A DNA stretch of 64,000 nt, from the NCBI GenBank assembly GCA_026706485.1, contig JAPOYR010000010.1, positions 145,798 to 209,797 on the forward strand. Reading direction: 5' to 3'. This document shows, one piece after another, positions 44,089 to 48,575 of the stretch (its first letter is position 1; every line of letters starts with the position of its first letter). This DNA is from Chloroflexota bacterium. Its GTDB lineage: Bacteria; Chloroflexota; UBA11872. The position numbers and the translations under genes were made by a program. The notes below the pieces were generated by a model. That model was not told where the DNA came from and did no database searches. It saw nothing but the letters and a program-made list of their open reading frames with translations.

Positions 44089-45249
44089 CTAGTAGTAGCC
44101 GAAGCCGCCGTCGGCCTTCGCCGGCACGGGGCGCCGCCACGATTGGTAGGGGTGCTGCTCCACGAGTGCCTCGTTGAGCGTCACGCCCCAGCCCGGACCC
44201 TGCGGCAGTTTGACATAGCCGTCCTCGATCTCGATGCCGCCGTGCAGAAAGCTGTGGCGCAGCGCGCTTGCCTGGGCTCGCGGCCCCACGGTCTGCGGCG
44301 ACTCCATGATGAGGAAATTGGGCGTCGCCGCGCCGAAATGCGCCGTGGCCACGGACGATAGCCCGCCAAACGGATTGTGCGGCGCCAGCGACAGCATGTG
44401 CGCCTCGGCCAGCGCCGCGATCTTGCGAATCTCGGTCATGCCGCCGCAAAGCAGGATGTCGGGCTGCAGCAGGTCGGCGCCCTGCGCCTCGATCAGCGCC
44501 TGGAACTCGTGCTTGCCGTACAGGCTTTCGCCGGTCGCCACGGGCAGATTCATCGCCCGCCGCGCCTCGGCCATCACCGTGTGGCTGCCGGGCCGGATCG
44601 GCTCCTCGATGAACATCGGCCGGAAGGGCTCGATGGCCCGGGCCAACTCGGCAGCCTTCGCCGGCTCCTCCAGTTTGGCGTGGAAGTCGACGCCGATTTC
44701 CGCGGAATCGCCGACCGCCGCGCGCACGGCCTCCACGCGCTCCGTCACCAGCCGGATGGCCTGTTGCCAGGGCAGGCGGTCGTCCTCCGGCGAATAGGGG
44801 AAGAGCTTGAACGCCGTGAATCCGTGGTCGCTCGCCATGGCCTTGGCTTCCTCGGCCATGTCCGCCGGATCGCCGGTCACTACGTCGAAGTAGACCCACA
44901 CGCGGTCGCGGTAGGGGCCGCCGAGCAGCTGATAGACCGGCTGATCGGCCAGCTTGCCCGCCAGGTCCCACAGCGCCAGGTCGATGCCGCTGATGGCCGC
45001 CCAGCCCACCGCGCCCGCCGGAAAGCGCAACCCGCGGTAGCAGAGGTGCCAGAGTCGCTCGCGGCGCGTGGCGTCCTGCCCCACCAGCCACTCGCCGAGA
45101 TAGCGCACCGTCTCGGCCACCGCGAGGTCCGGACCGGCGGCGTACGCCTCACCGAGGCCCACCAACCCCGACTCCGTCGTGATCGTGACGTAGTTCGCGT
45201 TGTGGTGCGTGTCCGAGGCCGTGCGCACCTCGACACTTTGGATGCGCAC
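44089..45249 (-). CDS. enolase-superfamily dehydratase (mandelate racemase/muconate lactonizing enzyme family; sugar-acid dehydratase-like)
   Basis: MR/MLE N-terminal capping domain plus barrel metal ligands (D...E...D pattern around VDFHAKLE / IEEP). 386 aa. Confidence 0.8.
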   Translation of the reverse strand: MRIQSVEVRTASDTHHNANYVTITTESGLVGLGEAYAAGPDLAVAETVRYLGEWLVGQDATRRERLWHLCYRGLRFPAGAVGWAAISGIDLALWDLAGKLADQPVYQLLGGPYRDRVWVYFDVVTGDPADMAEEAKAMASDHGFTAFKLFPYSPEDDRLPWQQAIRLVTERVEAVRAAVGDSAEIGVDFHAKLEEPAKAAELARAIEPFRPMFIEEPIRPGSHTVMAEARRAMNLPVATGESLYGKHEFQALIEAQGADLLQPDILLCGGMTEIRKIAALAEAHMLSLAPHNPFGGLSSVATAHFGAATPNFLIMESPQTVGPRAQASALRHSFLHGGIEIEDGYVKLPQGPGWGVTLNEALVEQHPYQSWRRPVPAKADGGFGYY

Positions 45250-45502
45250 CTAGTCCCGCCTCACAAACTCCACAACGCGCGCGAGCCTAGTCTGTGCGCT
45301 TTGGGCCGTCCAGCCAGACGGCCCCGCAATGGGCGCGCCGGATGCACATCGGCGCTGTCCATTCACTCCCTCGTGATCAGGGAACGGTCACCTGCATACA
45401 TGGAACGTTTTCGAAACGTCGCGCGTAGTATCTAGCGGAACACTTGGTGTCCGACGCCATAACCACACGGGAAACGGCCTCCTGAGTCACCATCGCCCGA
45501 CG

Positions 45503-45577
45503 TTGAACTCGACCGCTGTTCTAGTGGCTGTGATGGTGATCGCGATGAGCCTGGCGAGTTGCGGGCCCGATGAACCT
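45503..45577 (+). other. lipoprotein signal peptide coding segment (MNSTAVLVAVMVIAMSLASCGPDEP), out of frame with the downstream beta-propeller body
   Basis: Canonical n-h-c regions and lipobox LASC. The frame continues into implausible low-complexity sequence, while the beta-propeller frame opens at 45574. Confidence 0.5.
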
Positions 45578-45747
45578 GCCGCAGGAGGCCACCCGCGCCT
45601 GCGGCCTCGCCTGGGGAACGAGCCCTCTCTCTTGCGGCTACCCAGTCGCCGCCGGCCTCAGCGCTGCCAGCAAGAAAAAGGCCCCAGATCGTTCATCGGT
45701 CCGGAGCCCACGTCCACATCCAAACGCCTTGCTTTGGTGGCATCTCG

Positions 45748-47403
45748 TTGCCGAGGGCCCACTTCATTCGGTGGAGTCCCGATGACTCGGCCGTGTTCTT
45801 CAACCAAGGCAGCAATCTCTACCGAGTTTCGACCGACGGCACTGCGCCGCTCCGGATCGTTCCGGACCGCAAGTTGCGCCTGGAGGTCGGGCCAATGACC
45901 GCATTTGATGTCTCGCCCGATGGGACGCAGGTTGTCTATTCCAGCTGCGCTTTGCCCATGCAGCCCTGGATCGAACACGGTCCGTCGATCACTCGCGAGA
46001 CCGACCCCGAGGGCAACGAGATCGTCGTGATCAGTGAGTGGAGGGATGGTCATCCCCCTTATCCATCCACCTATGAGCTCGCGCGCATAAACATCGACGG
46101 TACGGAGTCGGAGCGGTTGACCGACAACGGGTCCTACGACAATTTCCCAGCATGGTCTCCCGACGGCACTCGAATTGCCTTTGTATCCAAGTCCGGGTTG
46201 TACGTCTTAGCTGCTGACGGCGCGCGGGTTCTGCCTCACGAGGTCCAGGCAGTCGTATCGGTCCAACAACCGCGACTGCCGGTGGAGTTGGAGGTGGTGG
46301 CTTTGCATCCGCCCGCGTGGTCTCCGGACGGCGCGCGTCTCGCCTTCGTGGGCTGGGGGCTTCCCACACAACCGACAGAACCCGTGGCAGCTAAATTTGA
46401 TATCTACACAGTAGGCGCGGACGGCGCAAACCTGCAGCGGCTAACAGGCACGGTGAGTGAACCCTCGTGGTCGCCGGACGGGCAGCGCATCGCCTTTGCC
46501 AAACCCGACGGCGACGACGTGGCGCTCTATACCATTTCCGCCGACGGCTCGGACCTCAAGCGGGTCACGACCATCACGGGCTGGCACCCGCAGTATGGGG
46601 AGCCGGATCCGGCGCGCGCCTGGATTGAGAACGTTGCATGGTCACCCGACGGCTCGAAGATCCTCTACACCTGCGGTTGGATCTGCGTGGTCAGCGTGGA
46701 CGGCAAGCCAGTCAATGACACGCCACTACGCGGAATCATCGCCGCCTGGTCTCCGGACGGCTCGCGCATCGCGGTGGCGGGAGTATTGCGCGATGTTCGC
46801 AGCATGGCCCCTGACGGCAGTGACGTGCGCAGCCTGCCGATTCCAGGTGCCACGGCCACGACCATCGGTCGTGCGGCCCCCAGCGGTCCAGGGTCGGGTC
46901 CGTGCACGGCGGGATTCGTCGTGGCGGCTCCCGCGGCGAACCCCGGGTTGGTGCAGGACTGCGAGACATTGCTGGAAGTGCTACCCGCGCTGTTTGGGCA
47001 GGGGCTCGATCGCTGGCTCCGAGAGTCGCCAATAGAGATATGGCCGGGCATCAGAGTCACCGGCACGCCCCCGAGGGTAACGGCGTTGACGCTTTTGGGG
47101 CATGAGCTGGACGGGACCATACCCGTCGAACTTGGGGCACTGACCCACTTACAGACTCTGGACCTTTCCTTCAACCAGCTCACCGGCCCAATCCCGGCTG
47201 AACTGGCGAAGCTGACTCGGCTTTTGAATCTGGACCTGTCCTGGAACGAACTCAGCGGACCGATTCCAGCAGAGATGGGCCACCTAGCCGACCTTGAACT
47301 GCTTTGGCTTGAGGGCAACCCGCTGACGGGCTGCATCCCGACAACTCTACGGAGCATCCCGGAAAATGACCTTCCGGGCCTCGGTCTGCCGGATTGCGAG
47401 TAA
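45748..47403 (+). CDS. PD40 (TolB-like) beta-propeller protein with C-terminal plant-type leucine-rich repeats, probably frameshifted from its signal peptide
   Basis: Repeated WSPDG..IAF PD40 blades (AWSPDGTRIAFV, AWSPDGARLAFV, SWSPDGQRIAFA, AWSPDGSKILYT, AWSPDGSRIAVA), followed by LxxLxLSxNxLTGPIPxEL LRRs. The in-frame region upstream of TTG 45748 is open back to 45574. Confidence 0.7.
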   Translation: MPRAHFIRWSPDDSAVFFNQGSNLYRVSTDGTAPLRIVPDRKLRLEVGPMTAFDVSPDGTQVVYSSCALPMQPWIEHGPSITRETDPEGNEIVVISEWRDGHPPYPSTYELARINIDGTESERLTDNGSYDNFPAWSPDGTRIAFVSKSGLYVLAADGARVLPHEVQAVVSVQQPRLPVELEVVALHPPAWSPDGARLAFVGWGLPTQPTEPVAAKFDIYTVGADGANLQRLTGTVSEPSWSPDGQRIAFAKPDGDDVALYTISADGSDLKRVTTITGWHPQYGEPDPARAWIENVAWSPDGSKILYTCGWICVVSVDGKPVNDTPLRGIIAAWSPDGSRIAVAGVLRDVRSMAPDGSDVRSLPIPGATATTIGRAAPSGPGSGPCTAGFVVAAPAANPGLVQDCETLLEVLPALFGQGLDRWLRESPIEIWPGIRVTGTPPRVTALTLLGHELDGTIPVELGALTHLQTLDLSFNQLTGPIPAELAKLTRLLNLDLSWNELSGPIPAEMGHLADLELLWLEGNPLTGCIPTTLRSIPENDLPGLGLPDCE

Positions 47404-47477
47404 CCACCAAAAGCCCTCAGTTGCCTGTAGACGACCGCGAGGTCACCGGAGACCTGCTGCTCGCTCGGCCGAGACTC

Positions 47478-48575
47478 TTAGCCCGCCGACGCTCCGTTCG
47501 CGGCCATGGGCAGGGCGCCGCCCTTGGCCTCGATGTCATCCCAGAAGTGGCAGGACACGAAGTGGCCGTCACCGACGTCTCTGAGCTCCGGCTCTTCCGT
47601 CGCGCAGCGATCTTCCGCCCACGGGCACCGCGGGTGGAAGCGACAGCCTGAGGGCGGGTTCACCGGACTCGGCACGTCGCCGGTGAGGATGATGCGTTCG
47701 CGCTTGGCTTCCAGGTCCGGATCCGGCACCGGCACCGCTGACAGCAGACATCGCGTGTACGGATGCAGCGGGCGCAGATAGAACTGCTCGCTGGGCGCCA
47801 TCTCGACGATTTGGCCGAGGTACATCACCGCGATGCGGTGGCTGATCTGCCGCACGACCTTGAAGTCGTGGGAGATGAACAGGTAGGCCACGCCCAGCTG
47901 CTGCTGCAGGTCCAGCAGCAGGTTCATGATCTGCGCCTGGATCGACACGTCCAGCGCGGACACCGGCTCGTCGCAGACGATGAACGACGGCTGCACCGCC
48001 AGCGCGCGGGCGAAGGCAATGCGCTGACGCTGTCCGCCGGAGAACTCGTGCGGGTAGCGGCTCGAGAAGCGCGGATCGAGCCCCACCAATTCCAGCAGCT
48101 CGCGCACGCGCTGGCGACGCTCGTCGCGGCTCTCGTAGAGATCGTGCACCTGCAGCGGCTCTTCGATGATCCGCCCGACCGACATCCGCGGGTTCAGCGA
48201 GCCGTACGGGTCTTGGAAGATCATCTGCATCTTCCGCCGCGCGCGCCGCTGGTCGTCGCGCGAGAGCTGGACGAGGTCGTTGCCCTCGAAGATCACCTCG
48301 CCCGCCGTCGGCGGCTCGAGCTGCATGATCGTATTGCCGGTGGTGGTCTTGCCGCACCCGGACTCGCCGACCAGGCCCAGGGTCTCGCCCGCGTTCAGCT
48401 CGAAGCTGATGCCGTCAACCGCCCGCACCAGCCCGGACTGGCGGCGAATGATGAATCCGCGCATCACGGGGAAGTATTTGGTGAGCCCGTTGACCGTCAG
48501 CAGCGTTTCGCCATTGGCGGAGCCGTTGCGGCTCGAAGCGCTCGTCATCGTCTCGCCGGCCCTCGCGTCGCTCAT
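47478..48575 (-). CDS. ABC transporter ATP-binding protein, OppF/DppF type (with oligopeptide-ABC C-terminal extension)
   Basis: Walker [10 protein letters not shown], signature FSGGQRQR, and a C-terminal HPYTRCLL...GCRFHPRCP region. 365 aa. Confidence 0.85.

Follow-up and report, generated by a model that had tools for sequence, protein, structure and literature searches.

A one-base deletion parts the signal peptide from the body of a PD40 and leucine-rich repeat lipoprotein gene in a Chloroflexota bacterium, probably creating a young pseudogene

A gene for a surface lipoprotein in the DNA analysed here (a stretch of 64,000 nucleotides from a Chloroflexota bacterium, called the window in the following) has lost one C shortly after its signal peptide. 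The signal peptide is now in one reading frame, and the body of the protein, a PD40 beta-propeller followed by plant-type leucine-rich repeats (LRRs), in another. The most likely interpretation, and one in which we have good confidence, is a recent and strain-specific loss-of-function frameshift, that is a young pseudogene, and not recoding.

One C has been lost in this strain from GCCGCC, between 45582 and 45583, and translation from the signal (at TTG 45503 or CTG 45482) would run on in frame 2 to stop at 45898; counted from TTG 45503, the product would have 131 aa, a lipid-anchor signal fused to nonsense. The propeller-LRR body, which lacks an export signal and in its own frame meets no start codon until 45748, would be made only from internal starts, and these two properties are the reason for regarding the allele as a recent strain-specific loss of function. 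The protein is presumably no longer made or exported.

Reading frames, signal peptide and start codons

The features of the 5' part of the locus are the following.

45418..45440, + strand: near-invariant 23-nt upstream element GTCGCGCGTAGTATCTAGCGGAA, kept in nine of nine aligned orthologous upstream regions, with one substitution in L009
45482..45484, + strand: CTG where orthologues start with GTG, in frame with the signal peptide (orthologue alignment)
45503..45562, + strand: lipoprotein signal peptide MNSTAVLVAVMVIAMSLAS-C in frame 2, from the TTG start to the lipobox Cys
45503..45898, + strand: frameshift-derived frame-2 ORF, signal peptide plus an Arg-rich stretch of about 105 residues read out of frame; the TGA at its end overlaps ATG 45895 (ATGA)
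45582..45583, + strand: one-base deletion, a C absent between these two bases (CCTGCCGCCAGGAGG in L001/L002, CCTGCCGCAGGAGG in the window)
45583..45747, + strand: frame-1 coding stretch without a start codon, a Pro/Ala-rich tether and the conserved segment ALPARKRPQIVHRSGAHVHIQTPCFGGIS, aligning in frame 1 to the relative P0006 and to all orthologues

A lipoprotein was taken to begin with a hydrophobic h-region followed, close to the N-terminus, by a lipobox of the form [LVI][ASTVI][GAS]C. The original prediction of such a signal from 45503 in frame 2 is borne out. The frame-2 ORF begins MNSTAVLVAVMVIAMSLASCGPDEP, encodes 131 aa and has its stop codon at 45896-45898; its hydrophobic core leads into the lipobox LASC (AVLVAVMVIAMS-LASC), and the Cys codon at 45560-45562 is residue 20 counted from TTG 45503. 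The motif ...LAMSLASCGPD... is N-terminal also in the intact orthologues and in many family members. Past 45583 the residues of this ORF have no counterpart in the orthologues, and a Pfam search with the ORF gave no match.

In frame 1 the last stop before the body is the TGA at 45571-45573; from 45574 the frame is open to 47403, and both frame translation and Pfam place the PD40/LRR body in it, as had been proposed. The earliest ATG, GTG or TTG of the open frame is TTG 45748, and the body ORF is otherwise undamaged, with 551 codons and zero stops. Signal peptide and mature body should share one frame in a lipoprotein gene; in the window copy they are in frame 2 and frame 1, respectively, and passing from the one to the other requires a -1 frame change, which is equal to one base absent from the DNA. 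Over most of the stretch 45583..45747 (model residues 1-23 and 25-31) the structural model has a pLDDT below 50, as expected of a tether.

The n-region is uncharged when counted from TTG 45503 (MNST) and contains one Arg when counted from CTG 45482 ((M)SHHRPTLN). The latter position is a GTG with GGGAGG just 5' of it in L003, L005 and L009, and P0006 is called from this GTG; a CTG is found at the equivalent position in five of eight loci (the window, L001, L004, L007 and L010). Gene callers have shortened the N-termini of intact orthologues as well, which makes start-site usage in the clade uncertain. The upstream element GTCGCGCGTAGTATCTAGCGGAA, which may be a promoter -10 region or a leader, lies in intergenic DNA that varies across the orthologous upstream regions. 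A scan of 45200-47600 for the strict sigma-70 promoter and intrinsic terminator consensus gave no match.

Location of the deletion

The original prediction called for a one-base shift between about 45575 and 45745. The alignment with orthologues agrees and narrows the shift to the C missing between 45582 and 45583. Eight syntenic loci (L001, L002, L003, L004, L005, L007, L009 and L010) were collected from the DNA of the seven closest homologues; they have a mandelate-racemase-family (MR_MLE) gene upstream and, where the contig extends that far, two oligopeptide-type ABC ATPase genes downstream. L004 has an N gap at the deletion site and was left out of the junction reading. In all seven readable loci (L001, L002, L003, L005, L007, L009 and L010) alignment and three-frame translation give one continuous frame for signal and body, and the window is short of exactly one C; among the explanations first offered this supports the pseudogene.

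The deletion lies 20 nt past the lipobox cysteine codon and turns GCCGCC into GCCGC; on the scale of a heptamer, CCGCCAGG in the nearest relative has become CCGCAGG in the window. When the C is restored in silico the product reads ...LASCGPDEPAARRPPAPAASPGERAL... / ...LASCGPDEPAARRPPAPAASPGERALSLAATQSPPASALPARKRPQIVHRSGAHVHIQTPCFGG..., identical to the L001 protein. Aligned with L001 over 7,507 bases, the window shows just two gaps, each of 1 nt: the gap at 45351 is intergenic, and the second is the missing C at 45582/45583, which is the sole coding-sequence indel in these 7.5 kb.

Homology in frame 1 to P0006 and other orthologues reaches upstream of every frame-1 start, to about 45590-45660, and the intact homologues have a lipobox. 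This speaks against homologues that truly begin at the equivalent of TTG 45748 without a signal, a possibility raised together with the original prediction.

A conserved frameshift in the close homologues P0001-P0005 and P0007, which have short N-termini, was considered and rejected: their DNA is single-frame through the signal and the short N-termini are start-calling artefacts. A search for paralogues within the window found none.

Reality of the deletion

Public assemblies were queried for exact copies of two proteins, the upstream neighbour and the 502-aa product that starts at ATG 45895. The deletion is present in the ENA scaffold SHAF22-1_SAMEA7723698_scaffold_11 (341,868 bp) and in Logan contigs of SRR10996932, ERR5003471 and ERR5002192; it is carried by L011, L012, L013, L016, L017, L018 and L019, and every retrieved contig that covers the site has it. 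The four deletion-bearing assemblies stem from two pipelines and three run accessions, which are not necessarily separate samples, and agree with the window at every base over 3.5-6.2 kb. A Logan contig of ERR5004221 was also found and ends short of the deletion site; all contigs match the window at 100% identity, over lengths of 1.5-6.2 kb. Exact-pattern scans for the junction, with and without the extra C, gave zero matches in genome contigs, and the junction scan of JGI metagenome contigs gave zero matches too; hence no intact allele was found on the window's own haplotype. Taken together, these data show that the deletion is genuine, private to this lineage and reproduced in independent assemblies.

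One could still suppose that the genome truly reads CCGCCAGG, that the gene is intact and that the base was lost in sequencing or assembly. The nearest relatives L001/L002 do have the extra C together with a nearly identical gene body, the region is GC-rich, and metagenome assemblies may hold indels (the MR_MLE gene of L009, a long-read style contig, is split in two). The original prediction accordingly listed an assembly indel in a GC-rich homopolymer. The deletion site is, however, a CC dinucleotide within GCCGCC, and the interval 45500-45900 has no run longer than 5 nt. Moreover, an error is unlikely because the two pipelines and three runs agree on the deletion without a mismatch over several kilobases, and no further coding indel separates the window from L001. 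We consider an error very improbable.

Recoding and phase variation

Programmed -1 ribosomal frameshifting or transcriptional slippage, also among the explanations first offered, would join the signal to the body, and full-length lipoprotein would still be produced. The shift needed is indeed -1, the two frames overlap over 45574-45898, and the tether, being variable, would probably accept a shift at any point; an SD-like AGGAGG occupies 45583-45588, and single-tRNA-Lys slippage would be possible on an A5 run (45675-45679). But the shift is private to this strain and absent from all readable orthologues (0 of 7 loci), which means that there is no selection for it, and both the AGGAGG and the A5 run are shared with L001, whose gene reads through without a shift. 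Heptamers of the form X XXY YYZ occur only twice (at 45563 and 45755), both in the wrong phase, and homopolymers do not exceed 5 nt. The RNA fold of 45560-45700 is not unusually stable (minimum free energy z=-0.85 against shuffles), and an Rfam scan of 45200-45950 found no frameshift element, its one match being a chance-level sRNA (E=0.38). We therefore give recoding next to no credence. In a weaker variant, low-level non-canonical -1 slippage in the tolerant tether could still give some full-length protein.

A phase-variable contingency gene was rejected as well, the GCCGCC site having no homopolymer or short tandem repeat tract that is long enough.

The propeller and the leucine-rich repeats

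The body consists of two modules.

45748..46905, + strand: PD40 (TolB-like) beta-propeller of about seven blades (Pfam, motifs, AF2 model, Foldseek)
46906..47403, + strand: plant-type LRR module, in order a helical N-cap with Cys, a degenerate LRR, three canonical LRRs, a Cys cap at the C-terminus and the stop (Pfam, regex, phmmer, model)

In Pfam the propeller matches PD40 (PF07676) with E=7e-27 and 93.1 bits against a cut-off of 20.9, and DPPIV_N with E=8e-15; six blade motifs of the type W-S-P-D-G/D are found in the body. Structure prediction with AlphaFold2 from an alignment of 50 sequences gave a model with a mean pLDDT of 79.4, in which about seven four-stranded blades are followed by a helical cap and then a short solenoid of LRRs. 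The best Foldseek matches to the propeller are TolB and S9-peptidase propellers, with E about 1e-14.

The LRR module matches LRR_1 and LRR_8 above their Pfam cut-offs. The pattern L..L..L.L..N.L.G.IP has three exact matches, at aa 465, 489 and 513, with a period of 24 residues, and one degenerate unit lies upstream of them. When the last 165 residues were compared with PDB sequences by phmmer, the top matches were all ectodomains of plant LRR receptor kinases (GSO1, FLS2, MIK2, PEPR1, ERL, BRI1). Residues 5-151 of GSO1 are aligned, taking in its N-terminal cap, on which query residues 11-60 fall; the cap LRRNT_2 (PF08263) itself gave no Pfam match at E<=0.1. The model has helices at 428-454 (the cap) followed by a solenoid of short strands. 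As far as sequence comparison can tell, the assignment to the plant-specific (PS) class with the consensus LxxLxxLxLxxNxLxGxIPxxLxx holds, because the PDB matches are led by plant LRR receptor-kinase ectodomains and the GSO1 alignment runs from the N-cap. The earlier description as five plant-type units thus stands with respect to type, by phmmer and motif, and fails with respect to number, which is one degenerate and three canonical units followed by a Cys cap. The cysteine pairs of the LRR caps are invariant, which suggests an extracytoplasmic, oxidising location of the protein.

The lipoprotein family

The original prediction called the combination of PD40 blades with plant-type LRRs uncommon in bacteria; for the Chloroflexota this is wrong. 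A protein search found 6,187 homologues at E<=1e-5, and all 120 of the matches listed have both PD40 and LRR Pfam domains. The few named members among these 120 all come from Chloroflexi/Chloroflexota MAGs, as do two relatives in species-representative genomes. A lipobox lies inside the first 45 residues in at least 41 of the 120 listed members (e.g. MRGHRLAWRAAVALLAALGLAVSLVSCGPD), and many of the others are obviously truncated gene calls. P0006 is 69% identical to the query over 96% of the query. The family is thus large, very common in Chloroflexota and uncharacterised. Its members normally begin with a Sec/lipobox signal and a tether rich in Pro and Ala, continue with a PD40 propeller that has about seven blades, and end in a plant-type LRR module, and the intact protein is probably a ligand-binding protein of the cell surface.

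LRR genes have been described in the genomes of Caldilineae and SAR202 bacteria from sponges, where they were proposed to take part in interaction with the host (Bayer et al., 2018, PMC6306507). Literature searches with the run, sample and MAG accessions, made with regard to habitat, found nothing, and searches on plant-specific LRRs in bacteria found nothing bearing directly on the PD40+LRR family.

Selection and recombination

The orthologues have dN/dS values of 0.26-0.41, i.e. they are under purifying selection. The gene body of the window is about 99.5% identical to that of L001; of the eight substitutions that separate the two genes, six are non-synonymous and two synonymous. When these were polarised with six further loci, five non-synonymous changes and one synonymous change were private to the window, in addition to the deletion; one non-synonymous change was private to L001, and one synonymous site was ambiguous. 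Among the private changes of the window is a G to D change that turns the first WSPDG motif into WSPDD. Finding at least five non-synonymous changes among six under the family dN/dS has P about 0.07 (binomial), a value that rests on six substitutions; the excess fits, suggestively, relaxed constraint after inactivation.

The similarity to L001 is confined to a tract.

45542..47534, no strand: tract of about 2 kb nearly identical to L001 (8 substitutions and 1 indel), seen in the mismatch profile, with flanks that are 5-15% divergent

In the comparison with L001, dS is 0.004 for this gene and 0.19-0.30 for four flanking genes, that is about 50-fold lower in the tract. On this pattern of divergence the tract 45542..47534 looks like a recent recombination tract that carried the gene.

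The allele might have become functional anew, either as a cytoplasmic body made from TTG 45748, GTG 45796 or ATG 45895, or in the sense that loss of the surface protein is adaptive, for example by hiding the cell from a host or phage, and went to fixation. The allele is unchanged in several runs, which suggests fixation in a successful clone, and selection for diversity or for loss of function typically acts on surface repeat proteins. The ATGA stop/start overlap at 45895-45898 could couple ATG 45895 to the frame-2 stop, and a GGTGG lies 9 nt upstream of TTG 45748. However, the ATGA and the internal starts also occur in intact orthologues, which makes them by-products of the coding sequence, and the invariant cysteine pairs of the LRR caps suggest an oxidising extracytoplasmic location. 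The five private non-synonymous changes, one of them in a blade motif, further point to relaxed and not to new constraint. We consider a new function or an adaptive loss unlikely. A more specific version, in which an adaptive loss of a eukaryote-like LRR surface lipoprotein was fixed in one clone of a host-associated population just after recombination from a sister population of about 95% ANI, is a doubtful one as well; if true, it would mean that such ELP genes are both exchanged and discarded fast under host or phage pressure.

The preferred reading, a young pseudogene, is by itself an ordinary event: one copy of a common lipoprotein has become a probable pseudogene, and the frameshift alone has little significance. 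For annotation it means that the locus should be marked as frameshifted and that the calls of 502-551 aa are truncated. Of wider interest is that lipoproteins with PD40 and plant-type LRRs form a large family in the phylum, that gene finders often mis-call their N-termini, and that the tract of about 2 kb with low dS is a small clean case of what appears to be a recent exchange by recombination, between related populations, of a gene with a putative role in host interaction.

Comparison with known systems

The protein resembles TolB in its PD40 repeats, TolB structures are at the top of the Foldseek list, and TIGR02800 is matched with E=1.5e-21. The match has only 76.8 bits, far under the 343-bit equivalog cut-off, and TM scores are low (0.3-0.45). 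In contrast to TolB the protein has no TolB N-terminal domain and ends in an LRR module, and its gene lies outside a tol-pal context. Identity with TolB was rejected on the sub-cut-off TIGR02800 score, the missing N-terminal domain and the missing tol-pal context.

The ectodomains of plant LRR receptor kinases and receptor-like proteins (GSO1, FLS2, PEPR1, BRI1) and the PGIP-type LRRs have the 24-residue repeat in common with the protein studied here. Unlike the plant LRR-RLKs, however, it has only about four repeats and neither a transmembrane helix nor a kinase, and its LRR module is part of a fusion with a lipoprotein signal and a bacterial propeller. The Xanthomonas type III effectors XopAC/AvrAC, XopAE and XopL are other bacterial proteins with plant-like LRRs. 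NCBIfam gives weak matches to them over the LRR region, to XopAC with 9e-8 and 31 bits against a cut-off of 450, to XopAE with 4e-6 and 26 bits against 600, and to XopL below threshold. In contrast to these effectors there is no Fic or E3-ligase domain, and export would follow the Sec/lipoprotein route and not type III secretion. Identity with a Xanthomonas LRR effector or with a plant receptor was therefore rejected; the protein only shares modules with each.

Sponge-associated bacteria have eukaryotic-like repeat proteins (ANK, TPR, LRR). The window gene is likewise one for an LRR protein, in a Chloroflexota MAG lineage.

The closest counterparts are the PD40+LRR lipoproteins of Chloroflexota (P0006, P0041, P0042, P0059), which share the lipobox (...LASCGPD...), the tether, the PD40 blades, the Cys cap and the 24-residue LRRs, and which, if named at all in their sources, are labelled 'hypothetical protein', 'leucine-rich repeat domain-containing protein' or 'DPP IV N-terminal domain-containing protein'. 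In many members of the family the LRR units are more numerous than in the window protein, and some have cadherin domains. An in-frame tether segment of 105 nt in L003, L005, L007 and L010 is absent in both the window and L001. What sets the window copy apart from these relatives is the 1-nt deletion that uncouples the signal from the body.

A near-identical tract shared with the nearest relative

The PD40+LRR gene lies in a tract of about 2 kb (45542-47534) which differs from the corresponding segment of the nearest relative, L001 (2646-4640), by 8 substitutions besides the one-base deletion, with a dS of 0.004 for the gene. The four genes flanking the tract have dS values of 0.19-0.30 in the same comparison, and the intergenic DNA adjoining it shows a divergence of about 15%. 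The pattern has the look of a recent homologous recombination by which a surface-protein gene would have been transferred between two populations that are about 95% identical. The left edge of the tract, at 45542, is just 40 nt upstream of the deletion.

Directly abutting the upstream side of this tract there are five substitutions private to the window within 11 nt (45531-45541), in the h-region of the signal peptide. They turn VAALGLAM into VAVMVIAM, every change replacing one hydrophobic residue with another. The cluster may be the signature of a recombination junction, or it may be derived from a donor which has not been sampled.

The PD40+LRR family is multi-copy within genomes. Four of its proteins (P0012, P0096, P0100 and P0106) are paralogues on a single 3.28-Mb Chloroflexota chromosome, and in one related genome a second paralogue of more than 702 aa is found immediately upstream of the orthologue (L003, 1-1882). 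No PD40+LRR paralogue was found elsewhere in the 64-kb window.

Tether length

Between the lipobox and the propeller the orthologous proteins carry a tether rich in Pro, Ala, Thr and Gln, and the alignment has a gap here at about 45640. The window and L001/L002 (the nearest relative) lack a segment which is present in the orthologous loci L003, L004, L005, L007 and L010; in L003, L005 and L010 this segment measures 105 nt (35 codons, in frame), in L004 and L007 90 nt. The tether of L009 is shorter still. Tether length is evidently free to vary.

It should be noted that indel quality is unequal among the compared assemblies. A reminder of this is the neighbouring MR_MLE gene of L009 (1625-2546; ctg794276_2x_l, a long-read style contig), which is annotated in two pieces (224 and 92 aa), probably through a frameshift error or a mutation in that assembly.

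Upstream element, start codon and stop/start overlap

One stretch is kept in all the orthologous upstream regions, with a single substitution in L009, while the intergenic sequence around it diverges:

45418-45440: 23-nt conserved stretch, GTCGCGCGTAGTATCTAGCGGAA

This stretch could serve as a leader element or as the -10 region of a promoter; a scan with the strict sigma-70 consensus gave no match, and none was found in Rfam.

At the position of 45482-45484 the orthologues L003, L005 and L009 have GTG preceded by GGGAGG, and GTG is the ancestral start codon. The window, L001, L004, L007 and L010 have CTG, with the Shine-Dalgarno sequence weakened to GGGAAA or GGGGAA. Since the CTG-bearing genes are still under purifying selection they must initiate either at this CTG or, seven codons further downstream, at the TTG. 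Most of these orthologous proteins have been shortened by 80-130 residues by gene callers.

The TGA which ends the out-of-frame ORF (frame 2) created by the deletion forms an ATGA (45895-45898) with an overlapping ATG that is in frame with the body. Such a stop/start overlap is the classic arrangement for coupling; here it is probably coincidental, because the intact orthologues have the ATGA too.
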